In this document: positions 6,774 to 44,123 of the stretch, piece after piece | Layout of the letters: the number at the start of each line of letters is the position of its first letter | Numbering within the stretch: position 1 is the first letter of the stretch | Assembly (NCBI GenBank): GCA_964442705.1 | Contig: CAYUAQ010000001.1 | Coordinates: forward strand, 14,976 to 78,975 | DNA: 64,000 bases | Direction of reading: 5' to 3' | Source: an uncultured Desulfobacteraceae bacterium | GTDB lineage: Bacteria; Desulfobacterota; Desulfobacteria; Desulfobacterales; JALSRD01 | Notes under the pieces: model-generated | Told to the model about the DNA's origin: nothing | Database searches by the model: none | The model's input: the letters and a program-made list of their open reading frames with translations, nothing else | Translations under genes and position numbers: made by a program

Positions 6774-6802
6774 TTGACAACAAAAACGCACAAACATATA
6801 AC
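6774..6802 (+). promoter_or_regulatory. Sigma-70-like promoter for the DeoR regulator gene
   Basis: TTGACA (6774-6779), 17-nt spacer, TATAAC (6797-6802). The ATG at 6820 follows with only a very short leader and no obvious SD. Confidence 0.45.
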
Positions 6803-6819
6803 GCTGCAAAATATCGCAC

Positions 6820-7602: not shown

Positions 7603-7667
7603 TTAATAAAGAACAATAAATCAGGCAGATAAAGATAAAACATAAACTTTAACGGAAAGGAAATGGT

Positions 7668-8435: not shown

Positions 8436-8452
8436 AAAAAAGGAGAATACCC

Positions 8453-9400: not shown

Positions 9401-9404
9401 AGGC

Positions 9405-12216: not shown

Positions 12217-13263
12217 ATGAAGACAAGGACAAGAACACTATGTTGGACACTGATAGCCGTTTTTGCCGCCGGGCTGGTGCTGGCCGCCGTTCCCGCCATC
12301 GCCAAGGATCTTCTGGTGTACACGGCGCTGGAGGACGACGAACTGGCCATCTACAAGAAGCAGTTCAAAATTGACCATCCGGAAATCAACCTGAAGATCG
12401 TGCGCGACTCCACGGGCATCGTCACCGCCAAGCTGCTGGCCGAAAAGGACAACCCGCGGGCCGATCTCATCTGGGGCCTGTCGGTGACCAGTGTGATGGT
12501 GTGCGACAACGTCGGCATGCTGACCGGCTACAGCCCCAAGGGACTGGATAAATTCTACAAGGGGTTTTACGACGACAAGAACAAGCAGGCGCACTGGACC
12601 GGTCTCAAAGCTTACATGACGGGATTCGTGGGCAACACCATCGAGATGAAGAAGCTGGGACTGACCATGCCCCAGTCCTATGCCGACCTGATCAAGCCGG
12701 AGTACAAGGGCTACCTGGTGATGCCCAACCCGGCCTCCTCGGGAACCGGTTTCCTGACGGTCTCGGCCTTCCTGCAGCTCATGGGCGAGGAAAAAGCCTG
12801 GGCATTTATGGACAAGCTGCACGAGAACATCGCCGTCTACACCCATTCCGGCTCCAAGCCCGCCAAGCTGGCGGGAAAGGGTGAGTATCCCATCGGCATC
12901 TCCTTCGCCTACCGCGGGTTCAAGCAGAAAGCCAAGGGCGAGCCGGTGGTGGTGGCCTTCCCCAAAGAGGGTTCCGGCTGGGAACTGGAGGCCAACGGCC
13001 TGATCAAGAAGCCCAAGATCAAGAAAGAGGCCAAGGTGTTCCTGGACTGGGCCATCAGCGACACCATGTTCAAACACTACAGCAAAGTGTACCCCATCAT
13101 CGCCAAGAAGGGCATCAAGGTGGTGGTCCCCGAGGGCTACCCCAAGGATCCCACCAAGCAGCTCATCAAGAACGACTTCGAGTGGGCCGCCAAGAACCGC
13201 GACAGGATCCTCAAGGAGTGGACCAAGCGATACGACAGCAAGAGCCTGCCCAAAAAGAAATAA
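12217..13263 (+). CDS. ABC transporter periplasmic substrate-binding protein, Fe3+/2-aminoethylphosphonate (PhnS2-like) family
   Basis: Signal peptide (LIAVFAAGLVLAAVPAIA), then KDLLVYTALEDDELAIYKKQFK..NLKIVRDSTG...ADLIWG, as in AEP/iron-type SBPs. GGGAGG RBS. Confidence 0.75.
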   Translation: MKTRTRTLCWTLIAVFAAGLVLAAVPAIAKDLLVYTALEDDELAIYKKQFKIDHPEINLKIVRDSTGIVTAKLLAEKDNPRADLIWGLSVTSVMVCDNVGMLTGYSPKGLDKFYKGFYDDKNKQAHWTGLKAYMTGFVGNTIEMKKLGLTMPQSYADLIKPEYKGYLVMPNPASSGTGFLTVSAFLQLMGEEKAWAFMDKLHENIAVYTHSGSKPAKLAGKGEYPIGISFAYRGFKQKAKGEPVVVAFPKEGSGWELEANGLIKKPKIKKEAKVFLDWAISDTMFKHYSKVYPIIAKKGIKVVVPEGYPKDPTKQLIKNDFEWAAKNRDRILKEWTKRYDSKSLPKKK

Positions 13264-13292: not shown

Positions 13293-13444
13293 GCATAATT
13301 ACGGGGTGGCCTGCTGGTGCAACATCCCTGGCGGGATCACCCTGACAGCAGATCAAGTGCCGGCGTGCAGACGGTTCGTCGCGCCGGCACCGCTGTTTGC
13401 AGCCCTATAAAAGAGACCCCGGTTTCGCACAGGAAGGATTTCAG

Positions 13445-14572
13445 ATGTCCTCAAGTTCTGCCGCCGCGGCAAAGCCAACCGAACCCTTTCTGGAAGTACG
13501 TAGCGTCACGAAGATGTTCGGCCGTTTCGTGGCCCTGGAAGATGTATCGCTGGAGGTCTATCCCGGAGAGCTGGTCTGCATCCTGGGCCCCAGCGGCTGC
13601 GGCAAGACCACGCTGCTGCGGGTGATCGCCGGCCTGGAGGAGCAGAACGTCGGTGAAATATTTTTGAAAGGCACCGATATCTCCCGCTACCCCACCTCCA
13701 AACGCCAGTGCGGTATCGTTTTCCAGTCCTATGCCCTTTTCCCCAACCTGACCGCTGCCCAGAACGTGGCCTACGGACTGAAAAACGCCGGCTTGAATCG
13801 CGAAAGGATTGTCGCCCGTACCCGGGAGATGCTGGATCTGGTGGGACTCGGCGACCAGGGACGAAAGTATCCGGCCCAGCTTTCAGGCGGCCAGCAGCAG
13901 CGTGTCGCCCTGGCGCGCGCCCTGGCCCCCAACCCCTCCATGCTGCTGCTGGATGAACCCCTGTCGGCGCTGGATGCCCAGGTGAGGGTGTACCTGCGCA
14001 GCGAGATTCGCGAACTGCAGCAGCGGCTGGGTATCACCACCATCATGGTGACCCACGATCAGGAGGAGGGGCTCACCATGGCCGACCGCATCATACTGAT
14101 GAAGGACGGCCGCTTGATTCAGTGCGACCCTCCCCAGACCATCTACCAGTCGCCCAAGACGACATTTGCCGCCGGCTTCATCGGCGCCATGAACTTTTTC
14201 AGGGGCTGGCGGGTGGCCGAGGCCGGCACCGTGGTGCTGGACGATTACACCCTCACGCTCGGCAACGGGCAGCTGGCGGAAATGGTGGGCCAGGAGGTGA
14301 CCCTGGCCATCCGGCCCGAAGACATCCGGGTGATGGAATCCGGAAAGACCGATACCAACATGGTGGAGGCCGAGATTCGCCACGTTGAATTCCGCGGGGC
14401 CTCCTATCGGCTGCGCATGCGGCTCAAGCGGCGCGGGGACTCGGAAAAATCCGATGACTTCGAGGCCGACATGCCCGCCATCCGGGTAGATCGCCTGGGG
14501 CTGAAAAGAGGGGTGTGCGTCAAAGCGCACCTGCCGCCGGACCGCCTGCTGTGGTTTAGCGAGGGCAGTTGA
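13445..14572 (+). CDS. ABC transporter ATP-binding protein (PhnT/PotA/FbpC-like, with C-terminal TOBE-like domain)
   Basis: Walker A GPSGCGKTT, signature LSGGQQQRVALARAL, Walker B LLLLDEP. Start chosen at MSSSS (AGGAAGGA RBS). The longest ORF starts at 13397. Confidence 0.88.
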   Translation: MSSSSAAAAKPTEPFLEVRSVTKMFGRFVALEDVSLEVYPGELVCILGPSGCGKTTLLRVIAGLEEQNVGEIFLKGTDISRYPTSKRQCGIVFQSYALFPNLTAAQNVAYGLKNAGLNRERIVARTREMLDLVGLGDQGRKYPAQLSGGQQQRVALARALAPNPSMLLLDEPLSALDAQVRVYLRSEIRELQQRLGITTIMVTHDQEEGLTMADRIILMKDGRLIQCDPPQTIYQSPKTTFAAGFIGAMNFFRGWRVAEAGTVVLDDYTLTLGNGQLAEMVGQEVTLAIRPEDIRVMESGKTDTNMVEAEIRHVEFRGASYRLRMRLKRRGDSEKSDDFEADMPAIRVDRLGLKRGVCVKAHLPPDRLLWFSEGS

Positions 14573-14681
14573 TGCTTTCCCACGGTTGGGTTGTCCGGTG
14601 TCCGTGGGCAAATGACAACACCGGAGGAGCACAGGTACAATATTCTTGCGCCCCCTCTGCACTTTCTTGTGCCGGTGGATT

Positions 14682-16757
14682 ATGACTTCTTCAACGATTG
14701 CCGAAAATTTCCTGGATTTTAACAGAATCGCCCGTAAGAAAGTGCGCCAGTACACCAGTTCAGAGAACTGGCTGCGCCGCTTCATGATATGGCTGCTGGT
14801 GCTGTGGATGACGGTGGCGGTGCTGCTGCCCGTATATCAGCTGTTGGAGCGCAGCATGCATGCCGAGGTGGCCGTCAATATCTTCGGTGAAGACGATGTG
14901 CGCCTGGGCGGCCGCCGGGTGTACATCAAGGACGGCCAGGTCATTTTCGACGCCACCCCGCTACCGCTGCGCGAGGGCACCATCTCCCATGACGGCATGA
15001 CCGTGGTGGTCGAAAACAGCAAGTTCCGCGAGGTGGTGTGCGAAAGGATCATGCTCTACGCCGAACCCACCATGGTAAAACCGGTGCGGGTGCAGCTGAG
15101 CGATGAGGCCTGGATCATCGACGGCCGCAAGCTGGCCGAAGACGATTACCAGGGGCTGGTGCAGCGCTGGATCGGGTTGAGCAACTTCAAGAAATACTTC
15201 GCCAACCGGGCATTGTACTACTCGGTGTACAACAGCCTGTTCGTGTCCGTGCTGACCACCCTGATCGCCGTGCTCCTGTCGCTGATCTACGCCTATGCCA
15301 TCACCCGCACCAAGATTGCGGGCAAGATATTTTTCCGCGTGGTGGCCATGCTGCCGCTCTATGCCCCCACCATGCTCTACGGGCTGTCGCTGGTCTACCT
15401 GTTCGGCCACAAGGGGTTTATCACCACGGGGTTTTTCGGACATCTGCCCTGGCTGGCCTGGGACATTCACCTCTACGGGGCGGTGGGCATCGTCATCTCC
15501 GAGGTGGTTTTCACCTTCCCGGCGGCTTACATGATCCTGATGGTCACCCTGCTGAACACCGATGCCCGGCTTTACGAGGCGGCCATCAGTCTGGGCGCCG
15601 GCAAGGTGCGCACCTTTCTGACCGTGACCCTGCCGGGTATCAAATACGGCCTGCTGAGCGCCATCTTCGTCTGCTTCACCCTGTGTTTCACGGACTTCGG
15701 CGCGCCCAAAGTGGTGGGCGGCAACTACAATGTGCTGGCAGTGGATATCTACAAACAGGTCATTGGCCAGCAGAATTTTGGCATGGGTGCCACCATCAGC
15801 ATCATCCTTCTGATCCCGGCGCTCATCTCTTTTATCGCCGACCGCATCGTGCAGCGGCGCCAAGTGGTGGCGCTGACGGCGCGCAGCGTGCCCTACGCCC
15901 CCAAGAAGAACCTGTTCGTCGATACTTCCATGTTCGTGCTGTGCGCCATGATCGCGGGCTTCATCCTGGCCATGCTGTTTGCCGCCGGGTTCGGGTCACT
16001 GGTCAAGATGTGGCCCTACAATTTCGAGCTGGGCCTGTGGCATTATTCCTTTGAAGACGTGGGCGGGGGCGGCTACAACGCCTTCTGGAATTCCATCCGC
16101 ATGGCCACCTACACGGCCGTCATCGGCACCATGGTGACCTTCACGGCCGCCTACCTCATCGAGAAGACGCGGCGCATGCGCATCCTGCGGCAGGCCTCCT
16201 ACCTGCTGTCCATCATCCCGCTGGCCCTGCCGGGCATGGTCATCGGCATTTCCTATATCTTCTTCTTTAACGACCCGCAGCTGAACATCCCTTTCACCAA
16301 CATCGGCTTTGCCAACCCCTTTCACGCCCTCTACGGCACCATCTGGATCATGGTGATCGCCAACATCATCCATTTCTACACCGTCAGTTTCCTGACCTCC
16401 ACCTCGGCCCTGCGACAGCTGGACAAGGAATTCGAGACGGTTTCCGAATCCATGTCGGTGCCTTTCTACACCACCTTCGCCCGCGTGACCGTGCCGGTGT
16501 GCCTGCCGGCCCTGGTGGAGGTGTTCATGTTTTATTTCGTCAGCTCCATGGCCACGGTTTCGGCGGTGATCTTCCTGTACTCGGCCGACACGGTGCTGGC
16601 CTCGGTGGCCGTCGTCAACATGGACGATGCCGGTGACCAGGCCCCGGCGGCGGCCATGTGCATGCTCATCGTGATGGCCAACATCGCCGTGCGCCTGGGC
16701 AGCGAAGGGGTCAATTATTTGTTCCGCAAGAAAACCGAGAGCTGGCGCCAGCGCTGA
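14682..16757 (+). CDS. Fused (two-module, about 12 TM) ABC transporter permease, PhnU2/FbpB-like
   Basis: About 690 aa, very hydrophobic, with two repeated BPD-transporter modules, as in fused iron/AEP-type permeases. The start is uncertain (14646 TTG or 14682 ATG). Confidence 0.8.
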   Translation: MTSSTIAENFLDFNRIARKKVRQYTSSENWLRRFMIWLLVLWMTVAVLLPVYQLLERSMHAEVAVNIFGEDDVRLGGRRVYIKDGQVIFDATPLPLREGTISHDGMTVVVENSKFREVVCERIMLYAEPTMVKPVRVQLSDEAWIIDGRKLAEDDYQGLVQRWIGLSNFKKYFANRALYYSVYNSLFVSVLTTLIAVLLSLIYAYAITRTKIAGKIFFRVVAMLPLYAPTMLYGLSLVYLFGHKGFITTGFFGHLPWLAWDIHLYGAVGIVISEVVFTFPAAYMILMVTLLNTDARLYEAAISLGAGKVRTFLTVTLPGIKYGLLSAIFVCFTLCFTDFGAPKVVGGNYNVLAVDIYKQVIGQQNFGMGATISIILLIPALISFIADRIVQRRQVVALTARSVPYAPKKNLFVDTSMFVLCAMIAGFILAMLFAAGFGSLVKMWPYNFELGLWHYSFEDVGGGGYNAFWNSIRMATYTAVIGTMVTFTAAYLIEKTRRMRILRQASYLLSIIPLALPGMVIGISYIFFFNDPQLNIPFTNIGFANPFHALYGTIWIMVIANIIHFYTVSFLTSTSALRQLDKEFETVSESMSVPFYTTFARVTVPVCLPALVEVFMFYFVSSMATVSAVIFLYSADTVLASVAVVNMDDAGDQAPAAAMCMLIVMANIAVRLGSEGVNYLFRKKTESWRQR

Positions 16758-16782
16758 CGCTTTCGCCACCGGTGGAAACCTT

Positions 16783-16815
16783 AAAACGGGGCCTTTTAGG
16801 AAAAGGCCCCGTTTT
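16783..16815 (+). terminator. Rho-independent terminator ending the ABC importer operon
   Basis: AAAACGGGGCCTTTT-AGG-AAAAGGCCCCGTTTT, a perfect 15-bp stem with A/T tracts on both sides (bidirectional type). Confidence 0.8.
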
Positions 16816-16898
16816 GCGTTGGGGGTGTCGTCACACCGTTTCGCGGAATCCGGCCGACACCATAACTTGACGTTATTCAATGTATTAAAATTCTTATT

Positions 16899-16927
16899 TT
16901 GACTCATATCTTCGGTTCCGTTATAGA
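16899..16927 (+). promoter_or_regulatory. Sigma-70-like promoter of the citrate-synthase-fold/transaminase/ALDH operon
   Basis: TTGACT (16899-16904), 17-nt spacer, TATAGA (16922-16927). About 38 nt upstream of the AGGAGG-ATG at 16965. Confidence 0.5.
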
Positions 16928-16964
16928 GGCGCCGATTGTGACCCTTACATCAGGAGGATCGTTT

Positions 16965-17861
16965 ATGGACCGCAAACCCATGTTCAGAAGAAAGACGTCG
17001 ATTTCGTACAAGACCGAGGAAAAAACGGTGATGCGGGGGTACAACCTGAGCGACCTGGCCGAGGAAGGCTACTCGTTCTGTGACGCCCTTTTCGTGCTCT
17101 ACCAGAACCGCATCCCCACCGAGGAAGAAGAGAAGATGCTCAACTACGAGATGGGGGTGTTCCTGGAGCACTCCATGTCGCCCTCGGCCGTGGCCGCCAT
17201 CGGGGTGAGCGCCGGGCGGCCCAACCTGCCCTGTGCCGTGGCCGCCGCCATCACCACCTTCGGCGGAGTGCACGGCCCCGGCGCGGCCCACGGCTACATG
17301 CTCAACAAGTACATCGAGCGCGCCCTGGAAGAGGGCAAGAGCATCGACGAGATGGCCAAGACCCTGGTGGACGAGTACATGGACAACAAGCGACCCGTGA
17401 TGGGCATGGGGCAGCCCCAGCACATCGACAGCGACCCCCGCGCCGAACCCATTCATCTCAAGCAGGAGGAGCTGGAACTTAAGGGGGTATATCTCGAATT
17501 TCAGCGGGCCGTGGAGAAATACTTCCACGAGCGGCGCAAACGCGAGGGACGCTCATACGTGGGCGTCAACGTGGTGGGCTCCGGCAACACGGCCCTGATG
17601 GAGATCGGGTTTTCGCCCAATGCCGGCTGGTGCATCGGAAGCGTCACCCGCGGTTTCAGCTGCGCCGCCCACGCCCTGTTCAACATGAAGAAGGGGCGCG
17701 CCTGGGGCGCTTCGCGCAACGAACCCATGGTGCAGATGATCGACCTGTCCATGATCAAGTACGTGGGGCCCGAAGACCGGGTGGTTCCCAAGCAGGAAGA
17801 GCGCCAGGAGTACGCCCGCAAACAGAAGCAAGAGGGGGAATACAAGAAATGGGTTATATAG
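16965..17861 (+). CDS. Citrate-synthase-fold protein A (citryl-CoA-lyase/citrate-synthase-like, diverged active site)
   Basis: 298 aa. CS-like motifs: TTFGGVHGPGAAHGYML (compare GPLHGGA), PVMGMGQPQHIDSDPRA (compare GFGHRVYKxxDPRA), GFSPNAGWCIGSVTRGFSCAAHAL (compare RxxGWxAH). AGGAGG RBS before ATG 16965. The ORF-track start at 16899 is TTG. Confidence 0.65.
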   Translation: MDRKPMFRRKTSISYKTEEKTVMRGYNLSDLAEEGYSFCDALFVLYQNRIPTEEEEKMLNYEMGVFLEHSMSPSAVAAIGVSAGRPNLPCAVAAAITTFGGVHGPGAAHGYMLNKYIERALEEGKSIDEMAKTLVDEYMDNKRPVMGMGQPQHIDSDPRAEPIHLKQEELELKGVYLEFQRAVEKYFHERRKREGRSYVGVNVVGSGNTALMEIGFSPNAGWCIGSVTRGFSCAAHALFNMKKGRAWGASRNEPMVQMIDLSMIKYVGPEDRVVPKQEERQEYARKQKQEGEYKKWVI

Positions 17862-18928
17862 ATCAGGAAAAGGCCGAGGAGCTCAACCGCATCAAGAAAG
17901 AGCGTCGGATCGGAAACCTCGACAACCCCAACATGCCCTATGATTACAGTCGCCGGGAATACGGCACGGTGCCCCGTGACACCACGCGGGCCCCTTTTCA
18001 GTGGGTGTCCGAGGTGGCCTACAAGAACGTGCACCGCATCGTGTCCCGCGGGTACGACACCACCGAACTGATGGAGGAAGGCTACGGGGTGGTGGACGTC
18101 CTGTTCGTGGACTACCAGGCCCGCATTCCCACCATCGAAGAGAGCCGGATGCTCAACTACGTCATGATCCTGGCGCTGGAGGACGGACTGTCCATGCCGG
18201 CGGCCATATCGCGCATCGTGGCCCACGCCAAGACTTTCCTGACCCAGGCCTGCGGGGCCTCGGTACTGGCCTTCGGCCACGCCTACGGCGCTTACTCGGC
18301 CTTCGGCAACCGGCTGGAGAAATACATCCAGAAGGTCGACGACGACGGCATAAGCCTGCAGGAGGCCGCCGAGGCGCTGGTGGCCGAGAACCTGCACGAC
18401 GAGGCCCTGGGAGTATCGGGGTTGATGCTCAGGGACCCCGCAGCCAAGCGGATGATCGCAAGGGCGGAAAAGCTTGGTGTGGCAGGGCGTTACATCAAGT
18501 TTTTAAAGGAAATTGTAAAGGCTGCCCAGAAGGCTTCGGATGCTCCCGTGGACGTGGACATGCTGGGGGCCAGCGGGGCGGTCATGATGGATCTGGGGTT
18601 TTCGCCCGAGGCCGCCTGGGCCATCATGGCGGTCACTCGGGCCTATGCCGCCGGCGCCCATTTCATCGAGGAGATCGAGCGCAGCGCCTACACGCGCCTG
18701 GGCCAGGAACTGACGCCGCCGGAGGACTACGACGGGCCGGCGGAAAAGCCGGTGCCGCCCTTAAAAGACCGCGCCAAGGTCGCCAAGCCCGCCCTGTGCC
18801 GCACGCCCCAGGAGTGGAAGCAGCGCTTCGAGGAGATGAAAAAACTCTCCGGCAGCGGGTTCGCCATCATCGAGGAAATCGAGGACCCCAGCAAGAAGTC
18901 CGGCATCAAGAAGGTGGGGAAGTTGTGA
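17849..18928 (+). CDS. Citrate-synthase-fold protein B (paralog of the upstream gene, more diverged)
   Basis: 359 aa. Motifs: VLAFGHAYGAYSAFG, GVSGLMLRDPAAK, GFSPEAAWAIMAVTRAYAAGAHFIEEIER. Start MGYIDQEK has an AGAGGGGGA RBS and overlaps the upstream gene by 13 nt. The longer alternative N-terminus from 17630 is Arg/Pro-rich and implausible. Confidence 0.65.
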   Translation: MGYIDQEKAEELNRIKKERRIGNLDNPNMPYDYSRREYGTVPRDTTRAPFQWVSEVAYKNVHRIVSRGYDTTELMEEGYGVVDVLFVDYQARIPTIEESRMLNYVMILALEDGLSMPAAISRIVAHAKTFLTQACGASVLAFGHAYGAYSAFGNRLEKYIQKVDDDGISLQEAAEALVAENLHDEALGVSGLMLRDPAAKRMIARAEKLGVAGRYIKFLKEIVKAAQKASDAPVDVDMLGASGAVMMDLGFSPEAAWAIMAVTRAYAAGAHFIEEIERSAYTRLGQELTPPEDYDGPAEKPVPPLKDRAKVAKPALCRTPQEWKQRFEEMKKLSGSGFAIIEEIEDPSKKSGIKKVGKL

Positions 18929-18935
18929 AGAAAGG

Positions 18936-19055
18936 GATCAGGTATCACCTTTCAGGGATTAGGTGTCAGGAACAGAAAGTATCAGGTATCAGCTGTCAGG
19001 TATCAGGTAAAGAGGGTATCGGGTATCAGCTGTCAGGTATCAGGTTTCAGGTATG
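18936..19055 (+). repeat. Intercistronic array of TCAGG(TATC) short direct repeats, including an exact 24-nt duplication
   Basis: TCAGG occurs 9 times in about 120 nt. GGTATCAGCTGTCAGGTATCAGGT is exact at 18985-19008 and 19022-19045 (37-nt period). Confidence 0.85.
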
Positions 19056-19072
19056 AGGAATAAGCGGAGGAT

Positions 19073-20215
19073 ATGACGATGGAAGTGGTCAAACCGGTCA
19101 AACGCAATGTGCTGCTCAACCCCGGGCCTGCCACCACCACGGACACGGTCAAGTACGCCCAGGTGGTGCCGGACATCTGTCCACGGGAGCAGGAATTCGT
19201 CGACATCATGACCGAAGTGCGCCGGGAGCTGGTGAAGATCGTTCACGGCGACCCGGATAAATACACGGCCGTGATCTTCACCGGCTCGGGCACCATCATT
19301 CAGGATGTGCTGGTCAATTCCCTCGTGCCGGAGGGCAAGAAGATATGCGTGGTCAACAACGGCGCCTACGCCGCCCGCATGGCCGAGATCGCCGATTACT
19401 ACGGGATTCCCTGCGTGAACGTGGAATTCGACACCACCGGGCTGCCGGACCTGGCGGTGGTGGAAAAGGCGCTGGCAGGAGACCCGGACATCGCCGTGGT
19501 GGCGGCCGTGCACCACGAGACCGGCACGGGGGTGCTCAATCCCGTGCGCGAAATCGGCCGGCTGGCCCACAAGCACGGCTGCGTGTTCGTGGTGGACACC
19601 ATCTCCACCTACGCGCTGCGGCCCATCGACATTGCGGCCGAGAACATCGATTTCCTGATGTCATCGGCCCAGAAGGGACTGGCCGCCATGACCGGCGCAT
19701 CCTGGACCGTGGGCCGCAGGGACGAGATCGAGAAGTCCAAGGCGTATCCCACGCGCTCCTACTACTGCAACCTGTACATGCAGTACGACTTTTTCGAGCG
19801 CGTGGGCGAGATGCACTTCACGCCCCCCGTGCAGACCATCTACGCCCTGCAGCAGGCCATTCGCGAATACTGGCAGGAGGGCGAAGCGGCCCGCTGGCGG
19901 CGGCTGACCAAATGCTGGGAAGCCGTCCACCGCGGACTGGAAGAGATCGGGCTGAAGTCCGTCATCGACAGGGACATCCAGGGCAAACTGGTGGTGACCG
20001 TCAAGGCCCCCGAAGACGGGCGCTTCGACTTCAACCGTCTGCACGACTACTGCTACGAGCGGGGATTCACCATCTACCCGGGCAAGATGTTCGGCCTGAA
20101 GACCTTCCGGCTGTGCAACCTCGGAGTGATCACCGAGGAGGACATCGAAGACTTCTTCGTGGTGGCCAAGGAGGCCTTCCGGGAGATGGGGTATTCGCTT
20201 CCGCTGGAAGTTTGA
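19073..20215 (+). CDS. phnW: Class V aminotransferase, 2-aminoethylphosphonate:pyruvate transaminase (PhnW)-like
   Basis: LLNPGPATTT, NNGAYAARM, HHETGTGVLNP, SSAQKGL (PLP lysine), GFTIYPGK, FRLCNLG. These align by eye with recalled Salmonella PhnW motifs (LLTPGPLTTS, SNGAYGARM, HSETTTGMLNP, SSANKCIQG, GFVIYPGK, FRIGNIG). The substrate is not proven. Confidence 0.7.
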   Translation: MTMEVVKPVKRNVLLNPGPATTTDTVKYAQVVPDICPREQEFVDIMTEVRRELVKIVHGDPDKYTAVIFTGSGTIIQDVLVNSLVPEGKKICVVNNGAYAARMAEIADYYGIPCVNVEFDTTGLPDLAVVEKALAGDPDIAVVAAVHHETGTGVLNPVREIGRLAHKHGCVFVVDTISTYALRPIDIAAENIDFLMSSAQKGLAAMTGASWTVGRRDEIEKSKAYPTRSYYCNLYMQYDFFERVGEMHFTPPVQTIYALQQAIREYWQEGEAARWRRLTKCWEAVHRGLEEIGLKSVIDRDIQGKLVVTVKAPEDGRFDFNRLHDYCYERGFTIYPGKMFGLKTFRLCNLGVITEEDIEDFFVVAKEAFREMGYSLPLEV

Positions 20216-20275
20216 AGTGTGAAGTGTGAAAAACTGGGCGTTAGACTGCGAGTTAAAAGATAAAGGAGAAAAGAG

Positions 20276-21664
20276 ATGCAAGACAATATCCAGGAGATGT
20301 ATGAAAGGGCCCGGCGGGCTTTCAAGGAAGTCGAATTCTGGCCCCAGGAGAAGGTGGACGAGATGGTGCTGTCGGTGGCCTGGGAACTGCTCAAGGAAGA
20401 TGTGCGGAAAAAACTGGGTACCATGGCCGTGGAGGAATCGGGCATCGGCGTGGCCGAAGACAAGATCGCCAAGATCCGCAACAAGACCCTGGGCACCCTC
20501 TGGGACCAGCGGGGCGTCAAAACCTGCGGACTGGTGGAACAAGACCCCGCTTTGCAGATCCGCAAATACGCCAAACCCATCGGGGTGATCGCCAACGTGG
20601 TGCCCTGCACCAACCCGGAGTCGACCATCTGCTGCCTGGCCCTGAGCACGCTGAAGACGCGCAACGCCCAAATCGTCTCGCCGCACCCGCGCACCCAGAA
20701 GACCTCCTACGAAACCGTGGAGCACGTCCGCAAGGGGCTGGCCAAGGTGGGCGCACCCGTGGACTTGGTGCAGTGCATCCAGCGGACCAGCCACGCCAAG
20801 ACCTCGGAGCTAATGGCCAACTGCGACTACGCCGTGGCCACCGGCGGGGCCGCCCTGGTCAAGGTGGTTTACGCCGCCGGCAAGCCGGCCCAGACCGTGG
20901 GCGCCGGCAACGTGGTGTCCATCGTGGACGAGACCGCCGACATCCCGGCCGCGGCCCACAAGGTGTTCATCTCCAAGATCGCCAACAACTCGGCTTCCTG
21001 CTCCTCGGAAAACGCCGTGGCGGTGCACGTGAGCAAGTTCGACGAGATGATGGCGGCCCTCAAATCAGAGGGCGCTTACCTGTGCAGCACCGAAGAGCGC
21101 GAGAAGCTGCGCCAGACCATGTGGCCCGACGGTACCCACCTGAACCGCGACATCGTGGCCCACTCGGCCCGATTCATCGCCGACTTGGCGGGCATCGAGG
21201 TGCCTGGAGACACCCGTGTGCTCATGGTCATGGGCGAGAAGATCGGCCCCGAGGACCGTTTTTCCGGGGAGAAAATCTCGCCGGTGCTGACCGTGTGGAA
21301 GTGGAGCGATTTCGACGAGATGCTGGATCGCCTGGAAAAGATCCTCAAATTTTCGGGCGAAGGGCACTCGGCCTCCATCCACACCGAGATCGACGAACGG
21401 CGGGTGAAACTGGCGCTGCGCGCCAACGTGGGGCGCGTGGTGTGCAGCATGCCCCACTCCTACGCCAACAGTGGCGGGTGGACCTCGGGACTGCCCACCA
21501 CCGACACCCTGGGCTGCGGCAGCTGGGCCGGCAACATCACCAGCGACAACATCAACTGGCGGCATTTTCTCAACTACACCTGGCTGGCGCTTCCCAAGGA
21601 CGAGTACATCCCCGGCGACGAAGAGCTCTTCGGTGAGTTTCTCAAGAAATGGGGCAGTGACTAA
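20276..21664 (+). CDS. CoA-acylating aldehyde dehydrogenase (EutE/PduP/AdhE-N-terminal family)
   Basis: 462 aa. Candidate catalytic Cys context IANNSASCSSENAV resembles AdhE/EutE (NGxxCASEQ). The overall length and motifs are not those of classic non-acylating ALDHs. Confidence 0.7.
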   Translation: MQDNIQEMYERARRAFKEVEFWPQEKVDEMVLSVAWELLKEDVRKKLGTMAVEESGIGVAEDKIAKIRNKTLGTLWDQRGVKTCGLVEQDPALQIRKYAKPIGVIANVVPCTNPESTICCLALSTLKTRNAQIVSPHPRTQKTSYETVEHVRKGLAKVGAPVDLVQCIQRTSHAKTSELMANCDYAVATGGAALVKVVYAAGKPAQTVGAGNVVSIVDETADIPAAAHKVFISKIANNSASCSSENAVAVHVSKFDEMMAALKSEGAYLCSTEEREKLRQTMWPDGTHLNRDIVAHSARFIADLAGIEVPGDTRVLMVMGEKIGPEDRFSGEKISPVLTVWKWSDFDEMLDRLEKILKFSGEGHSASIHTEIDERRVKLALRANVGRVVCSMPHSYANSGGWTSGLPTTDTLGCGSWAGNITSDNINWRHFLNYTWLALPKDEYIPGDEELFGEFLKKWGSD

Positions 21665-21676
21665 GCTTTTCTCGGG

Positions 21677-21710
21677 AAACGGGGCACGCCGTCAAAGGCC
21701 GCCCCGTTTT
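21677..21710 (+). terminator. Terminator-like hairpin after the aldehyde dehydrogenase gene
   Basis: AAACGGGGC-(15 nt)-GCCCCGTTT followed by T, 13 nt after the stop. Confidence 0.55.
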
Positions 21711-21725
21711 GGCGAGTGGAACAGC

Positions 21726-22304
21726 ATGCCGGCCACGGAATTCCGTGACAGACTTTACCAGGCGTTGCGCGAATGTCGCTTGGAAGAGGCGCTGGCGGCG
21801 CTGCAGCGCAACCCGGAGCGCCTGCCCGCACACCGAGTCGACTCGCTTGTGGAACGGCTCGAGGGCCAGGCCCGCCAGCTGCAGATGGCGGGGGAAATCG
21901 GAGCCTGCCGGCGGATGGAACGGCACATTTTCGCGTTGCGCGCCCTCTTGGCGCATGGCCCGCAGGCCTGCAGGGTGATCCGCGACGTTGAGCTGACACC
22001 GAACTACGACGGAAAGATCCTGCTGATGAAACTGGCCGGCGGCCTGCTGGACGGCAAACTGTGCCTGCGCGGCGGCGACGAGTGGCACCGGGAGATCCTT
22101 CGAAATACGGTTGCGGAAATCGGTGATCTGGGCTTCACTGCTGTTCAGGTTCTGCCTTTGGGCGGGGGCTTATTACGCTTCGAGGACCAGCGGCACCCGC
22201 GGCTGCGGGGTGCCAGCGACGAATTTGGCCGTTGTGACATGGAGCTGGCCGCCAAGCTGCTAAGCAGCACTTTTCCGGAAACGAATATCCGGGTTGACGA
22301 TTGA
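21726..22304 (+). CDS. Hypothetical protein (192 aa)
   Basis: ORF in frame with 21471..22304. Start chosen at MPATEF, after the terminator. No recognisable motifs. Confidence 0.45.
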   Translation: MPATEFRDRLYQALRECRLEEALAALQRNPERLPAHRVDSLVERLEGQARQLQMAGEIGACRRMERHIFALRALLAHGPQACRVIRDVELTPNYDGKILLMKLAGGLLDGKLCLRGGDEWHREILRNTVAEIGDLGFTAVQVLPLGGGLLRFEDQRHPRLRGASDEFGRCDMELAAKLLSSTFPETNIRVDD

Positions 22305-22308
22305 CCCC

Positions 22309-22719
22309 ATGAGAGCCATCACCCTGCCGCGGCCCATGGCCTGGCTGGTGGCCATGGGTGCAAAAGCCATCGAGACCCGCCCGCGTGCGACACCTTACCG
22401 CGGCCCGCTGGCGATTCACGCCGCTGCTGCTGCCAGTGCGGTAACGGATCCCTACCACCGGCAGGTACTGTCAGAGGGCGGCCTGGATCCGGACCGGCTG
22501 CCCGGCGGCGTCGTTATTGCCCTGTGCCGTCTGGTGGACTGCCGGCTGATCATGCCGGCGGAATGCCCCTGCTATCCCGAGTATGCCTTCGGCTGTTTCA
22601 CTCCCGGGTGGTACGCCTGGCACCTTTCAGACATCCAGGCCCTGCCGGCGCCCATTAGCGCCCGGGGACATGCCGGACTTTGGTTGTGGCACAATGCAGA
22701 TTCTCCCTGGAGAAACTGA
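22309..22719 (+). CDS. ASCH-domain-like small protein
   Basis: MRAITLPRPMAWLVAMGAKAIETRPRATPYRGPLAIHAA...WYAWHLSDIQALP resembles the ASCH/PUA-like fold family. Starts 4 nt after the upstream stop. Confidence 0.5.
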   Translation: MRAITLPRPMAWLVAMGAKAIETRPRATPYRGPLAIHAAAAASAVTDPYHRQVLSEGGLDPDRLPGGVVIALCRLVDCRLIMPAECPCYPEYAFGCFTPGWYAWHLSDIQALPAPISARGHAGLWLWHNADSPWRN

Positions 22720-22722
22720 AAC

Positions 22723-23283
22723 ATGGATGAATCACCGAAACGGGCTGTGGGAGGGGTGAGAAATACTGAGACCGTGTATGCCGGGAGGCTGTTTTCCTTT
22801 ACCGTGGAGGACGTGCGGCTGCCAAACGGCGTGGAAACCCGCCTGGCCTTCGTGCGCCACCCAGGATCAACCGCCATCGTGCCGCTGACCGATGACGGCC
22901 AGGTGGTGATGACCCGCCAGTACCGGCATGCGGTAAAGGCCTACCTGCTGGAGGTGCCGGCCGGCACCATGGAGCCCGGAGAGCCCCCTCTGGACTGTGC
23001 GCGGCGCGAACTGGAGGAAGAGACCGGCATGCTCCCCGGCAGCATGCAGTCCCTGGGGTACATCCACATCCTGCCGTCCTATTCCGACGAGGTCATCCAC
23101 CTCTACCTGGCACGCAACCTTGCCCGCACGGCCCAGCACCTGGACCGCGACGAGATCATCGAGCTGGAAGTCCACCCCCTGGACAGGCTCATGCGGATGA
23201 TCGCAGACGGCCGCATCACCGATGCTTTGACCATCCTGTGCCTGCAGCGGACCTGGTTTTTCCTGGAGCACCAACCAGGCTGA
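22723..23283 (+). CDS. NUDIX hydrolase (ADP-ribose pyrophosphatase-like)
   Basis: Nudix box GTMEPGEPPLDCARRELEEETG. Confidence 0.85.
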   Translation: MDESPKRAVGGVRNTETVYAGRLFSFTVEDVRLPNGVETRLAFVRHPGSTAIVPLTDDGQVVMTRQYRHAVKAYLLEVPAGTMEPGEPPLDCARRELEEETGMLPGSMQSLGYIHILPSYSDEVIHLYLARNLARTAQHLDRDEIIELEVHPLDRLMRMIADGRITDALTILCLQRTWFFLEHQPG

Positions 23284-23371: not shown

Positions 23372-24277
23372 CTAAAAGATCGACTGCATGTAGCTCTGCG
23401 TCCAGCGGTCGATGCGCACGATCAGGGCCCTGAGCGGCTCGGAGAGGTACTTGTCGCGGTGGTGCACCAGGTAGAACTTGCGCGTCAGGGTCTTGTCGGT
23501 CAGCGGGATTTCCGCCAGGCGGCCGGCCTGTATCTCTTCCTGGGCCACCTTGCGGCTGATCAGGGCGATACCCAGCCCGGCTTCCACGGCCTCCTTGATG
23601 GCCCGGTTGCTGGAAAGCTCCATGGGGATCGTCAGGGACAGCTTGTTGACCTGCACCAGTTTTTCCAGCGCCCGGCGGGGGGCCGATCCCGGCTCGTGCA
23701 CGATCATGGGGTGGTCCTCGAGATCGCGGGGGTCGAGGAGGTGTTTGCGGGTGATGGGGTGGCCCGGCGGCACGATGAGTATCAGGCGGTCCTCCAGGAT
23801 TTCCTGCATGATGATTTTGGGGTTGCCGATGGGGTAGGAGATAAACCCCAGGTCGCACTCCAGGGCAACTACTTTTTCCACCACCAGGTCGCTGGGCAGG
23901 ATGCTGACCGACAGCGTTATGTGAGGGTTGGCACGGCAGAAGGGCGTCGTGATGGAGGGCAGGTAGTAAGCGCCGAAACTCTCGCTGGCGTGCACGCGGA
24001 TGTGCCCCTTTTCAAATTTCTGGAATTCGCGTATGCTCTCTTCGGCAAAGCGCTCCATTTCGAAGATCTTTTCGGCCACCTCGTAAAGGGCCTCGCCGGC
24101 ATCGGTGAGTGCCATTTTTTTCCCGAAACGGTTGATGAAGCGCAGCTCGTACTGCTCCTGCAGCCGCTGGATGCCCTTGGTGACGGCCGGCTGGGTGATG
24201 TTAAGCTCACGAGCGGCGGCACTCAGGTTACCGTGGCGCGCCGCCAAGTAGAAAATCTTCAGCAAATTCAGGTTCAT
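23372..24277 (-). CDS. LysR-family transcriptional regulator
   Basis: MNLNLLKIFYLAARHGNLSAAARELNITQPAVTKGIQRLQEQY (LysR HTH) plus a substrate-binding domain. Start taken at MNLNLL. The longest ORF runs to 24358. Confidence 0.88.
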   Translation of the reverse strand: MNLNLLKIFYLAARHGNLSAAARELNITQPAVTKGIQRLQEQYELRFINRFGKKMALTDAGEALYEVAEKIFEMERFAEESIREFQKFEKGHIRVHASESFGAYYLPSITTPFCRANPHITLSVSILPSDLVVEKVVALECDLGFISYPIGNPKIIMQEILEDRLILIVPPGHPITRKHLLDPRDLEDHPMIVHEPGSAPRRALEKLVQVNKLSLTIPMELSSNRAIKEAVEAGLGIALISRKVAQEEIQAGRLAEIPLTDKTLTRKFYLVHHRDKYLSEPLRALIVRIDRWTQSYMQSIF

Positions 24278-24289
24278 TACTGCAATATC

Positions 24290-24310
24290 ATTACATTTGG
24301 TTATGGTAAT
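24290..24310. promoter_or_regulatory. LysR-type T-N11-A operator in the divergent intergenic region
   Basis: ATTAC-N11-GTAAT (ATTACatttggttatgGTAAT) 13 nt upstream of the LysR start. A further ATTAC direct copy lies at 24276-24280. Confidence 0.5.
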
Positions 24311-24489
24311 GAATAAAAGTATGATCTGCCAATAGCACAGCCAAGACGGCCGGATCAATCTTTTTGCACGCGCAGGAGTTGGCAGGCAGAGCAGCGGGGG
24401 AAGCGGCGCGAAGGATCAGGGTTGGCTTTTGCCCGATGGTAAGGTAAAAGAAAAGCCCATTCACCAAATAATCCAGGCTTACAGGAGCC

Positions 24490-35819: not shown

Positions 35820-35837
35820 CATGCAAGGGAGAAAGAA

Positions 35838-36587: not shown

Positions 36588-36609
36588 TCCTGAAAGAGGG
36601 AATCGTTTT

Positions 36610-37017: not shown

Positions 37018-37042
37018 AGTCAAAGTGAAAGGAAAGCATTCC

Positions 37043-37612: not shown

Positions 37613-37646
37613 AACAGCATTAACCCCTCTAACCCCAGGTGATGAT

Positions 37647-37964: not shown

Positions 37965-37974
37965 GGGTGCAGAC

Positions 37975-44120: not shown

Positions 44121-44123
44121 CCA

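Follow-up and report, generated by a model that had tools for sequence, protein, structure and literature searches.

A putative 2-aminoethylphosphonate catabolic island encoding paired citrate-synthase-fold proteins in a Desulfobacteraceae bacterium

Introduction

Among described enzymes, the closest counterpart to the aldehyde dehydrogenase considered here is SauS, which acts on sulfoacetaldehyde, an isosteric anionic C2 aldehyde, and yields sulfoacetyl-CoA (PMC10413351). Genomes of sulfate reducers are noted to lack PhnX, and phnA has been recorded in 18 of 95 sulfate-reducing strains (PMC4046663). Here we analyze a 64-kb stretch of DNA (the window) from a Desulfobacteraceae bacterium, carrying what we judge, at roughly even chances, to be a catabolic island for 2-aminoethylphosphonate (AEP) that operates via an undescribed CoA-dependent route, with N-methylated forms of AEP probably serving as further substrates. 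No description of such a route was found in the literature searched.

Results

All features given below lie on the forward strand, except for one divergent regulator. The core comprises four genes at 16965–21664, encoding two citrate-synthase-fold proteins (CS-A and CS-B), a PhnW-AepZ-type AEP aminotransferase and a CoA-acylating aldehyde dehydrogenase (ALDH), and all four products named in a preliminary description of this DNA matched family profiles. The genes sit, as also proposed there, behind a type-2 AEP ABC importer, consisting of the substrate-binding protein PhnS2 (12217–13263; TIGR03261, 451 bits, cut-off 393), the ATPase PhnT2 (13397–14572, start codon uncertain; TIGR03265, 458.3 bits against 457.7) and the fused double permease PhnU2 (14646–16757; TIGR03262, 712 bits against 593). 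The aminotransferase (19073–20215) scored 430 bits with TIGR03301 (PhnW-AepZ, cut-off 361) and 300 with NF010006 (cut-off 296), and 295 with TIGR02326, under the cut-off of 401. Phosphonate identity is supported by the importer proteins and PhnW-AepZ all exceeding equivalog cut-offs. The ALDH (20276–21664), previously assigned to an EutE/AdhE type, is of the acylating type, and its best family is SauS (NF047625, 486 bits, under the cut-off of 600) rather than AdhE (375 bits) or the EutE type (308 bits). Its catalytic Cys, within NNSASCSSEN, is conserved in 61 homologues, and we propose that it is an acylating phosphonoacetaldehyde dehydrogenase.

CS-A (16965–17861, 298 aa) begins at an ATG 7 nt past AGGAGG, and not at the TTG inside the promoter from which its reading frame had been drawn (16899). 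CS-B (17849–18928, 359 aa) is a paralogue translationally coupled to it, its ATG and the CS-A stop forming a 13-nt overlap. Both matched PF00285 (63 and 29.4 bits, respectively; cut-off 27), and they are 32% identical to one another (BLASTP, E 5e-44); the best NCBIfam citryl-CoA lyase model gave 123 bits with CS-A, below its cut-off of 212. In AF2 models (pLDDT 90 for CS-A and 84 for CS-B), both are predicted to have a citryl-CoA-lyase fold, with 6hxp as the best PDB match of each (TM 0.74/0.85 for CS-A). Relative to GltA, CS-A retains H103 (GltA H264), R159 (R314) and R229 (R387), and carries Q150 in place of H305 and V204 in place of D362, while CS-B has Y, V, A and L at H264, H305, R314 and D362, having lost nearly all canonical active-site residues. 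The His-His-Asp catalytic triad is thus kept whole in neither protein, and the absence of H305 and D362 from both excludes ordinary citrate-synthase or lyase chemistry. Accordingly, we rejected the pair as ordinary citrate, methylcitrate or citryl-CoA enzymes, in line with the preliminary description.

An AT-rich conserved element at 16874–16927 contains the promoter and a probable regulator site. The promoter proposed earlier, TTGACT (-35, 16899–16904) and TATAGA (-10, 16922–16927) separated by 17 nt, is present, and was not flagged by a consensus promoter scan because its -10 lacks the final T. The call is backed by conservation upstream of CS-A, where TTGACT(T)ATA lies within an AT-rich element of ~35 nt, TTGACTTA is found in 33 of the 77 loci, and 17 nt further downstream lies a TAnAAT-like -10. 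Two terminators had been described on either side of the unit: a strong hairpin is found after phnU2 (16782–16816; dG -26 kcal/mol, z -3.7 against shuffles) and another hairpin after the ALDH gene (21671–21716; dG -28 kcal/mol, z -3.2); neither has the T-run that the terminator scan requires. The first is probably a terminator dividing the two units. The spacer between CS-B and phnW holds an array of about 17 AGGTATC heptamers (18933–19058, TRF), and in relatives this spacer is likewise filled by arrays of repeats or hairpins specific to each lineage.

The unit is larger than the self-contained four-gene operon first described, as further genes adjoin it on both sides. Before the transporter, a DeoR/GlpR-family regulator (6802–7602; NCBIfam GlpR/AgaR-type matches of 176 and 158 bits, both under cut-off) heads a block with electron-transfer flavoprotein (ETF) beta and alpha genes (7653–9400; NCBIfam EtfB-like and EtfA-like matches). 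ETF beta spans 7653–8435 and the alpha open frame 8312–9400, its true start being probably near 8440; several related loci also carry ETF-like clusters (c27 and c35). The block also encodes an 809-aa protein of the dimethylglycine/sarcosine-dehydrogenase type, in which an FAD oxidase (DAO) is fused to a GcvT aminomethyltransferase (9405–11834; NCBIfam GcvT 197 bits, with SoxA/SoxB-type and TMAO-demethylase-like matches as well). Its gene lies beside the module in 5 of the 81 loci, and from this context the protein may be an N-methyl-aminoethylphosphonate demethylase.

Directly downstream of the ALDH gene lies a gene missing from the preliminary description, which encodes a 192-aa PHPT1-like phosphatase with a C-terminal Janus/Ocnus domain of the phosphohistidine-phosphatase family (21726–22304; PF05005, 30.5 bits, cut-off 23, model positions 4–107 of 108). 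The best PDB match of its family profile was human PHPT1 (E 0.004); that alignment begins at residue 53 of the chain and at the invariant His121 of the family. The gene lies beside the module in 17 of the 50 complete loci. Overlapping its stop is a gene for a 141-aa protein (22294–22719; cluster c25) with no Pfam or NCBIfam match, found after the Ocnus-like gene in five loci, followed by a Nudix hydrolase (22723–23283; NudE/ADP-ribose-pyrophosphatase-like, NCBIfam NudE 88 bits, under cut-off) whose gene is adjacent to the module in 13 loci. A divergent LysR-type protein (23372–24358, reverse strand), assigned from its HTH-containing translation, is a candidate regulator of the operon, and its cluster turns up again downstream of the module, in 24 of the 81 loci.

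Across 50 related loci that are complete on the downstream side (from Desulfobacterales, Planctomycetota and others), CS-A was accompanied by CS-B in every case and by ALDH in 49, making this trio almost perfectly linked. CS-A itself is 83%–91% identical across Desulfobacterales, Planctomycetota, Anaerolineales, Latescibacterota, SAR324 and Spirochaetales. Window-type PhnW was present in 41 of the 50, and in six of the remaining nine another part of the locus carried a PhnW-type gene, either classic or more divergent; four minimal loci (L013, L030, L034 and L041) contain only CS-A, CS-B, PhnW and ALDH. Co-occurrence of the CS-fold pair with PhnW-like or AEP-transporter genes had been suggested previously as a cross-genome check; in relatives, phosphonate importers are among the neighbors, and canonical phnX, phnA or xsc are not consistently adjacent. 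Variable neighbors include classic PhnW (486 bits), the 1-hydroxy-AEP ammonia-lyase PbfA (700 bits, cut-off 525), an HpnZ-like 'phosphonate catabolism' ADH (302 bits), PhnC and PhnE importers, PHO4 and PhoU_div phosphate transport, and one of two sets of probable demethylases, the first made up of MtmB, a corrinoid protein and an MtaA-like protein, the second of DAO-GcvT and ETF. These changing enzymes are expected to converge on phosphonoacetaldehyde or its precursor AEP. A non-PhnX HAD hydrolase, also encoded in relatives, had likewise gone unmentioned in the preliminary description.

Discussion

The recurrence of PbfA, PhnS2T2U2, PhnCE, the HpnZ-like ADH and PHO4 with PhoU_div strongly supports a phosphonate rather than a sulfonate reading of the operon. 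Both had been entertained; the taurine/sulfonate option found no support, as no sulfonate-specific neighbor recurs. PhnX, PhnA, PhnZ, Xsc, IslA and C-P lyase were all missing from a scan of every sizeable ORF in the 64 kb, and tblastn searches of the window with HAD, PhnX-like, PbfA and other related-locus neighbor queries returned no match, which agrees with the earlier view of a unit devoid of a recognizable second-step or known C-P-cleaving enzyme and suggests that the C-P bond of an aminophosphonate is broken here in a manner not yet described.

The C-P bond could instead be cleaved by some other protein. The HAD hydrolase could be the real C-P hydrolase, given that it follows ALDH in 41 of 50 complete loci and has a nucleophilic Asp without the Asp+2 acid/base, a motif state also seen in phosphonatase and dehalogenases; it is absent from the window, and its gene could lie elsewhere in the genome. 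Similarly, PhnA or another known enzyme could be encoded beyond the 64 kb scanned, given the record of phnA in some sulfate-reducing strains.

The substrates are a further source of alternatives. The ALDH falls short of the SauS cut-off and may use an aldehyde other than phosphonoacetaldehyde. The active-site signature of CS-A ('QPQH, no Asp'), which the preliminary description did not mention, is common to more distant relatives whose genes are flanked by those of CoA-transferase subunits and whose loci show no evident phosphonate genes, and so is not specific to C-P chemistry and does not indicate it by itself; C-C bonds are the likelier target of these relatives. Their position does suggest that the clade acts on CoA esters supplied by an adjacent enzyme.

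In the route that we infer, including all its substrates and reactions, PhnS2T2U2 would import AEP, PhnW would transaminate it to phosphonoacetaldehyde, and the SauS-like dehydrogenase, using NAD(P)+ and CoA, would oxidize this aldehyde to phosphonoacetyl-CoA. A CS-A/CS-B heteromer would then bind the thioester, CS-A being proposed as the catalytic subunit with the working site and CS-B as a degenerate partner or scaffold. The stabilization of the acetyl-CoA enolate typical of the fold, together with the retained oxaloacetate-pocket Arg cluster, would make the enolate a leaving group, and CS-A keeps the enolate-stabilizing His (GltA H264) and the equivalents of R314 and R387. Hydrolysis of the C-P bond would give acetyl-CoA and phosphate, while the PHPT1-like protein in the window, and in most relatives the HAD hydrolase, would be accessory phosphatases, perhaps removing some phosphorylated intermediate. 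That the CS-fold pair itself hydrolyzes the C-P bond of phosphonoacetyl-CoA is the most parsimonious reading and chemically sensible, and it is one that we purely infer.

The operon is a high-value lead toward a new class of C-P-cleaving enzyme. Its closely conserved gene set, found in sediment sulfate reducers and other anaerobes, apparently degrades the natural phosphonate AEP without any known enzyme of this kind. We know of no pathway in which phosphonoacetyl-CoA is a catabolic intermediate. To our knowledge, all known hydrolytic C-P cleavages (PhnX, PhnA and phosphonopyruvate hydrolase) use a beta-carbonyl electron sink, and a thioester enolate is an electron sink of the same beta-carbonyl type.

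Conservation and genomic context of the module

In the window, which comes from a Desulfobacteraceae MAG, the operon encodes two citrate-synthase-fold (citryl-CoA-lyase-like) proteins, CS-A (16965-17861, + strand, 298 aa) and CS-B (17849-18928, + strand, 359 aa), a class V aminotransferase recognized by NCBIfam models (PhnW; 19073-20215, + strand), and an aldehyde dehydrogenase recognized by NCBIfam and Pfam models (ALDH; 20276-21664, + strand). CS-A begins at a real ATG at 16965 with AGGAGG ahead of it, and the ATG of CS-B overlaps the CS-A stop by 13 nt. Three adjacent upstream genes on the + strand, phnS2 (12217-13263; 451 bits, cut-off 393), phnT2 (13397-14572; 458.3 bits, cut-off 457.7), and phnU2 (14646-16757; 712 bits, cut-off 593), all pass their NCBIfam equivalog cut-offs and encode PhnS2T2U2, the type-2 ABC importer of 2-aminoethylphosphonate (AEP). 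Directly upstream of these, 6802-11834 encodes a DeoR regulator, both ETF subunits (beta and alpha), and a dimethylglycine-dehydrogenase-type DAO-GcvT fusion of 809 aa. We infer that the fusion is probably an ETF-linked N-methyl-AEP demethylase, which by analogy would parallel the MtmB, corrinoid, and MtaA-like genes of Planctomycetota loci L001, L070, and L090. At positions 13059-14442 of L090, next to the module, an MtmB homologue is broken into successive ORFs of 140, 115, and 216 aa; an intact MtmB gene and a corrinoid protein gene lie alongside. An in-frame amber (pyrrolysine) codon may account for the split, or the homologue may be a pseudogene.

Two public contigs were 100% identical to the window across CS-A, and the best 120 matches to CS-A were all at least 81% identical. 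With clustering at 50%, only 492 matching representatives were found among 1.84 billion proteins, and at 90% identity the protein collection contains hundreds to more than 1000 clusters of CS-A and CS-B, with source annotations reading only "citrate synthase" or "hypothetical." The module of CS-A, CS-B, and ALDH occurs in at least seven phyla, mostly in anaerobic sediment bacteria. A scan of species-representative genomes yielded 124 CS-A loci, of which 80 were retrieved; hosts were mostly Desulfobacterales, together with Planctomycetota (Pirellulales, Thermoguttaceae, Sedimentisphaerales, and Phycisphaerae), Anaerolineales, Latescibacterota, SAR324, Spirochaetales, and a few others. Gene counts were restricted to loci extending 6.5 kb or more downstream (complete loci, n = 50), where CS-B was present in all 50, the ALDH in 49, and window-type PhnW in 41, usually in the order CS-A, CS-B, PhnW, ALDH, and a HAD hydrolase. 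In six of the nine loci without window-type PhnW, another PhnW-type gene, either classic or more divergent, is found at a different place in the locus.

Beyond this core, gene content varies. The HAD hydrolase (cluster c3, hereafter HAD-c3) was found in 41/50 complete loci, a PHPT1-like protein in 17/50, EamA in 15/50, PbfA in 13/50, DUF4886 in 11/50, PhnS2/PhnU2 and ADH_Zn in 7/50 each, DAO-GcvT and PHO4 in 5/50 each, and a PhnX-like protein in 4/50. Variable neighbors include a classic PhnW (486 bits), PbfA (700 vs. 525 bits), which converts 1-hydroxy-AEP to phosphonoacetaldehyde, an HpnZ-like "phosphonate catabolism" alcohol dehydrogenase (302 bits), PhnC and PhnE (both passing their cut-offs), MtmB-type methyltransferases accompanied by corrinoid and MtaA-like proteins, and a PiT-type phosphate transporter paired with PhoU_div. 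The same module, alongside PhnW-AepZ and MtmB genes, is retained in a lineage with only 74% identity to CS-A. These diverse inputs are expected to give phosphonoacetaldehyde or AEP, with one invariant output module of CS-A, CS-B, and acylating ALDH, and this pairing of varied inputs with an unvarying module is our strongest evidence that the module processes phosphonoacetaldehyde.

Promoter and flanking sequences

A strong hairpin follows phnU2 (16782-16816; dG -26 kcal/mol, z -3.7 against shuffles), and after it comes an AT-rich stretch with TTGACT, a 17-nt spacer, and TATAGA, with CS-A next. The consensus promoter scan did not flag this promoter because its -10 element lacks the final T. Nonetheless, in many relatives the region ahead of CS-A has a conserved, roughly 35-nt AT-rich element that includes TTGACT(T)ATA, and TTGACTTA was found upstream of CS-A in 33/77 loci with a TAnAAT-like -10 at 17-nt spacing. 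The promoter TTGACT-17-TATAGA that had been proposed at 16899 is therefore backed by conservation, and the AT-rich element probably also contains a regulator site. No Rfam family matched the leader or the region (E up to 0.1), and the leader folded no better than shuffled sequences (z -0.02), leading us to reject a riboswitch or other known RNA there; a sigma-54 promoter upstream of CS-A was likewise rejected, with none in 77 loci.

The spacer between CS-B and phnW (18933-19058) carries about 17 copies of the heptamer AGGTATC, which also occurs at 20207-20230. The same spacer holds lineage-specific arrays of 7-8-nt repeats in other loci (L008, L013, L019, L029, L034, L035, L039, L042, L046, L048, and L068), often trailed by their own reverse complement to form long repeat-built hairpins, and it spans merely 10-40 nt in other relatives. 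These arrays may have a role in mRNA processing, mRNA stability, or the tuning of translation.

Farther downstream, the PHPT1-like gene ends inside a 141-aa ORF (22294-22719) that neither Pfam nor NCBIfam recognizes and that comes after an Ocnus-like gene in five loci. Beyond this ORF, genes for a Nudix hydrolase (22723-23283) and a divergently oriented LysR regulator (23372-24358) are recurrent. A type IV pilus cluster (35820-45965), with N-methylation-motif pilins, PilX, a 1813-aa PilY1-like protein, and a PilB/TfpB ATPase, bears no relation to the finding. Between 58000 and 64000, the G+C content drops from about 58% to 41-50% across genes for a TPR protein, a family-2 glycosyltransferase, and a methyltransferase, a segment that may be a horizontally acquired surface-polysaccharide region.

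Two divergent citrate-synthase-fold proteins

Both CS proteins match the citrate synthase family PF00285 (cut-off 27), CS-A with 63 bits and CS-B with 29.4 bits, and they are paralogues with 32% identity. AF2 models (pLDDT 90 for CS-A and 84 for CS-B) had the same best PDB match, the Hydrogenobacter thermophilus citryl-CoA lyase (CCL) 6hxp, with Foldseek TM values of 0.74/0.85 for CS-A and 0.57/0.78 for CS-B; this enzyme is the nearest solved relative by sequence and by fold. The citrate-synthase-type all-helical fold is thus predicted for both. The best scores against curated NCBIfam models, which include those of PRK06224, were 123 bits (CS-A) and 99 bits (CS-B), compared with cut-offs of 193-261 or more for citrate synthases and citryl-CoA lyases.

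Active-site positions were taken from an alignment of CS-A and CS-B with Escherichia coli citrate synthase (GltA) and 6hxp. The His-His-Asp triad (GltA H264/H305/D362; pig H274/H320/D375), intact in GltA and 6hxp, reads H, Q, V in CS-A and Y, V, L in CS-B: the enolate-stabilizing H264 corresponds to H103 in CS-A and Tyr in CS-B, H305 to Gln150 and Val, and the catalytic base D362 to Val204 and Leu. R306 is replaced by Pro in CS-A and Ser in CS-B, and Y308 by His and Leu, with a "QPQH" motif in CS-A instead of the canonical sequence. Among the oxaloacetate/citrate-binding arginines (GltA R314, R387, and R407'), CS-A has R159, R229, and R/K at 251, and CS-B, with Ala at the R314 position, has only the R387 equivalent, the register of R407 being uncertain. 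At the seven positions other than R407', these states were constant in all sampled family members. The loss of the triad from both proteins therefore means that neither is an ordinary citrate synthase or citryl-CoA lyase, and CS-A appears to retain the part of the site that polarizes the thioester carbonyl, along with a cationic pocket where the anionic groups of oxaloacetate sit. In one lineage 60% identical to CS-A, the A-type protein P0121 and B-type protein P0133 share near-identical stretches (e.g., KSLKEMA..LV.E and GTAGxYHDFQIEIQN) that are not common to the window's CS-A and CS-B, a pattern that may point to gene conversion, or to the pair having been re-duplicated recently.

Aminotransferase and acylating aldehyde dehydrogenase

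The aminotransferase passed the cut-offs of TIGR03301 (PhnW-AepZ; 430 bits vs. 361) and NF010006 (300 vs. 296), although it fell below that of the narrower TIGR02326 (295 vs. 401), and it is predicted to be an AEP aminotransferase of the PhnW/AepZ type. For the ALDH, the best family was SauS, the acylating sulfoacetaldehyde dehydrogenase (NF047625), with 486 bits, under the equivalog cut-off of 600, as were relatives at 479-515 bits; other scores were 375 bits for AdhE, 308 bits for EutE-type, and 62 bits for PF00171. Its catalytic Cys, within NNSASCSSEN (xCxxE motif), is kept in 61 homologues, and the predicted enzyme, similar over its full length to acylating members, is of the CoA-acylating type (AdhE N-terminal/EutE/SauS).

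Absence of known cleavage enzymes

No PhnX (TIGR01422), PhnA, PhnZ, Xsc, IslA, or C-P lyase subunit was found among all sizeable ORFs of the 64 kb, and tblastn of the window with the HAD, PhnX-like, and PbfA proteins of relatives gave no match. The preliminary description had recognized no known second-step enzyme in the 64 kb, and the ORF scan agrees. A hidden HAD, PbfA, or MtmB gene was also considered and rejected, with none detected by tblastn, as was an HD-domain neighbor as a candidate PhnZ, which in NCBIfam matched only generic HD/HDIG models and the C-terminal part of a DVU_1551-type NTP transferase. The question of whether a canonical cleavage gene is consistently encoded beside the operon in relatives was answered in the negative: the recurrent clusters of 81 loci included no PhnA (nor any phnA-like cluster), PhnY*/PhnZ, C-P lyase, Xsc, or IslA, and the PhnX-like gene (TIGR03351, 170 bits, under the cut-off of 219) was present in only 4/50 complete relatives. 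Four complete loci (L013, L030, L034, and L041) contain only CS-A, CS-B, PhnW, and ALDH. A genome paper on a related sulfate reducer has noted the lack of PhnX in sulfate-reducer genomes, as well as phnA in some sulfate reducers (PMC4046663).

Candidate phosphatases and CoA-transferase-linked relatives

Overlooked in the preliminary description were HAD-c3, the PHPT1-like protein, and a group of single-gene CS-A relatives. HAD-c3 is a HAD-IA hydrolase (TIGR02253/YjjG-like, 98-111 bits) encoded directly after the ALDH in the relatives that have it and missing from the window. It was rejected as a PhnX, having no match to PhnX models and no invariant cap Lys for a Schiff base. Motif I is D-F-x-Q-T, with the nucleophilic Asp and without the Asp+2 acid/base, and several invariant Arg and aromatic residues in the cap appear suited to a polyanionic ligand. 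In the window, the PHPT1-like gene (21726-22304, 192 aa) comes directly after the ALDH hairpin; its product matches PF05005 (Janus/Ocnus) over the whole domain (30.5 bits, cut-off 23), and the best solved structure for its family profile is human PHPT1 (E 0.004), with the alignment starting at chain residue 53, the counterpart of the invariant H121 of the window protein. Both proteins would be phosphatases fit for groups that can leave unprotonated (phospho-His, acyl phosphates, or a carbanion/enolate). Their role may be to clear a phosphorylated intermediate; alternatively, the actual C-P hydrolase may be one of the two.

The single-gene CS-A relatives (L086, 4066-6829; L087, 7211-9712; L089, 6234-13281) are 40-45% identical to CS-A and carry the same QPQH/no-Asp signature. 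They lie between or beside two family-I CoA-transferase subunits (PF01144) in loci without evident phosphonate genes, which also encode crotonyl-CoA carboxylase/reductase, or a non-acylating ALDH and two class III omega-aminotransferases. The signature common to these CoA-transferase-linked relatives suggests that the clade acts on CoA esters supplied by a neighboring enzyme, supporting a CoA-ester substrate; since it occurs in non-phosphonate loci, the signature by itself is no sign of C-P chemistry. By analogy, the three loci look like an uncharacterized "CoA-transferase + CCL-like" system reminiscent of citrate lyase.

A proposed route from AEP to acetyl-CoA

In the route we propose, AEP, or N-methyl-AEP after demethylation, would be imported, PhnW would convert AEP to phosphonoacetaldehyde, the SauS-like ALDH would oxidize the aldehyde to phosphonoacetyl-CoA with formation of NAD(P)H, and a CS-A/B heteromer would cleave phosphonoacetyl-CoA to acetyl-CoA and Pi. 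The first part, from AEP through phosphonoacetaldehyde to the CoA ester, is probable, and the case for the full route, with CS-A/B as the C-P-cleaving enzyme, stands evenly balanced. Every hydrolytic C-P cleavage of which we are aware depends on an electron sink at a beta-carbonyl, namely an enamine in PhnX and a metal-bound enolate in PhnA and phosphonopyruvate hydrolase, and the citrate-synthase fold is specialized in making the acetyl-CoA enolate. We know of no enzyme that removes X from X-CH2-CO-SCoA. The full-text literature searched contained nothing linking phosphonate catabolism to citryl-CoA-lyase-like proteins, to an acylating phosphonoacetaldehyde dehydrogenase, or to phosphonoacetyl-CoA as a catabolite, and its single mention of phosphonoacetyl-CoA came from work on biosynthesis, where its formation had been predicted but did not occur. 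Tentatively, and with doubt slightly outweighing confidence, we put forward CS-A/B as the founding phosphonoacetyl-CoA phosphonohydrolase on the citrate-synthase fold, which together with an acylating phosphonoacetaldehyde dehydrogenase would constitute a further AEP route beyond PhnX, PhnY/PhnA, PhnY*/PhnZ, and C-P lyase, one that is oxygen-independent and thioester-conserving, serves sulfate reducers and Planctomycetota of anoxic marine sediments, and may have a phosphorylated intermediate resolved by the PHPT1-like protein and HAD.

It is unlikely, though worth serious consideration, that a phosphatase-type enzyme instead cuts the C-P bond of phosphonoacetyl-CoA (or phosphonoacetaldehyde), with HAD attacking phosphorus through its Asp in most relatives and the PHPT1-like protein or an unlinked HAD serving here, and with CS-A/B having some other task, such as to bind or present the CoA ester, to protonate the enolate, or to deal with the thioester. 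The placement of HAD-c3 after the ALDH in 41/50 complete loci is consistent with this, as are the PHPT1-family phosphatase directly downstream in the window, the polyanion-suited cap, and a motif without Asp+2 that recalls phosphonatase (DxAGT) and haloacid dehalogenases, whose leaving groups need no protonation. However, HAD is absent from the window and from 9/50 complete loci, with the PHPT1-like protein missing as well in four of those nine, whereas CS-A/B is never absent; HAD scores far under PhnX models, and its cap has no invariant Lys that could form a Schiff base as in PhnX; and the proteins conserved most strongly in the system (83-91% identity) would be left functionless. We also consider it improbable that CS-A/B performs C-C or thioester chemistry, either converting phosphonoacetyl-CoA to phosphonoacetate by CoA hydrolysis or transfer for a PhnA encoded elsewhere, or acting as a retro-Claisen lyase or condensing enzyme on another amine-derived CoA ester (for example, one from an aminophosphonate of greater length, or malonyl-CoA made from beta-alanine through malonate semialdehyde). 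The settings of the same-signature relatives do suggest C-C chemistry on CoA esters of carboxylic acids, citrate synthases hydrolyze citryl-CoA, and phnA occurs in some sulfate reducers (PMC4046663). Yet making a thioester only to hydrolyze it would be wasteful when a non-acylating PhnY exists, thioester hydrolysis by citrate synthase requires the Asp that is missing here, the variable neighbors all indicate phosphonoacetaldehyde, a C2 compound offering no C3 for a retro-Claisen reaction, and no phnA-like gene recurs in the 81 loci.

The preliminary description had left room for a sulfonate version. In such a version, taurine or isethionate would give sulfoacetaldehyde, the ALDH would be a true SauS, and CS-A/B would desulfonate sulfoacetyl-CoA to acetyl-CoA and sulfite for respiration by the sulfate reducer. 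The chemistry is analogous, SauS is the best ALDH family, and hosts are mostly sulfate or sulfite reducers, but we regard this version as very improbable: the ALDH scores stay under the SauS cut-off, the aminotransferase scores above the cut-offs of equivalog models specific for AEP, unlike taurine transaminases, which belong to class III, the neighbors (PbfA, PhnS2T2U2, PhnC/PhnE, HpnZ-like alcohol dehydrogenase, phosphate transporters, and phosphatases) point to phosphonates, and no sulfonate transporter, sulfite exporter, or Xsc/IslA context recurs. The suggestion that CS-A/B might be ordinary citrate, 2-methylcitrate, or citryl-CoA enzymes located by chance beside PhnW and ALDH, which the PF00285 matches and "citrate synthase" source labels would invite, is effectively refuted by the lost triad, by scores far under every NCBIfam cut-off for such enzymes, and by near-perfect linkage to ALDH and PhnW across phyla.

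Phosphonates constitute a large share of marine dissolved organic phosphorus, with AEP the most common biogenic phosphonate, and the hydrolytic AEP routes described to date all end, as far as we are aware, in PhnX or PhnA. If the module does cut the C-P bond via a CoA thioester, it would add a new enzyme class and a new intermediate, phosphonoacetyl-CoA, to phosphonate biochemistry, explain AEP mineralization in anoxic sediments with a gain of acetyl-CoA and reducing equivalents, supply a marker gene for phosphorus-cycle surveys that are now blind to this capacity, and represent recruitment of the citrate-synthase fold to the cleavage of a heteroatom-carbon bond.

Comparison with known systems

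Similar to the PhnW-PhnX pathway of Salmonella and Bacillus cereus, the proposed route would begin with AEP import and transamination by a class V PhnW to phosphonoacetaldehyde, rely on hydrolytic C-P cleavage through a beta-carbonyl-derived electron sink, and deliver its end product into acetyl-CoA metabolism. It differs in that the window has no PhnX, the aldehyde would be oxidized to a CoA thioester before the C-P cut, the sink would be a thioester enolate rather than a Lys enamine, and NAD(P)H and acetyl-CoA would be obtained directly. The PhnW-PhnY-PhnA pathway of Sinorhizobium meliloti likewise oxidizes the aldehyde carbon ahead of C-P hydrolysis and has an acetate-type enolate as leaving group; however, PhnY is a non-acylating ALDH that yields free phosphonoacetate, in contrast to the CoA-acylating AdhE/EutE/SauS type here, and the candidate hydrolase has a citrate-synthase fold, whereas PhnA, which is absent here, is a zinc enzyme belonging to the alkaline-phosphatase superfamily.

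SauS of Cupriavidus necator and Bilophila wadsworthia, the best-scoring ALDH family, with the catalytic Cys motif kept, catalyzes conversion in either direction between an anionic C2 aldehyde (X-CH2-CHO) and the corresponding CoA thioester (PMC10413351), although the window ALDH falls short of the equivalog cut-off (486 vs. 600), its context is phosphonate rather than sulfonate, and in known pathways sulfoacetyl-CoA is formed by ligases (SauT or SauCD) and then reduced. The eukaryotic 14-kDa phosphohistidine phosphatase PHPT1 and its Janus/Ocnus relatives share with the PHPT1-like protein the His at the alignment start and the GGG and G-x-S-x-x-(F/Y)G motifs, but the window protein is bacterial, has an extra N-terminal region of about 80 residues, and lies within a phosphonate operon. 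With 6hxp and the CCL module of ATP-citrate lyase, CS-A and CS-B have in common the same short citrate-synthase-type fold, and CS-A keeps the enolate-stabilizing His and two substrate-binding Arg; the CCL reaction itself releases an acetyl-CoA enolate from a substituted acetyl-CoA. Nonetheless, identity to the CS proteins is only 22-26%, the equivalents of His305 and Asp362 are gone from both, CCL is a homo-oligomer whereas CS-A/CS-B is an obligate paralogue pair in which CS-B has extra N- and C-terminal extensions, and the bond broken by CCL is C-C rather than the C-P proposed for CS-A/B. The overall logic (transaminate, activate the beta-carbonyl, hydrolyze) would be the same as in the known AEP pathways, with a C-P hydrolase that represents a new enzyme class if the mechanism holds.
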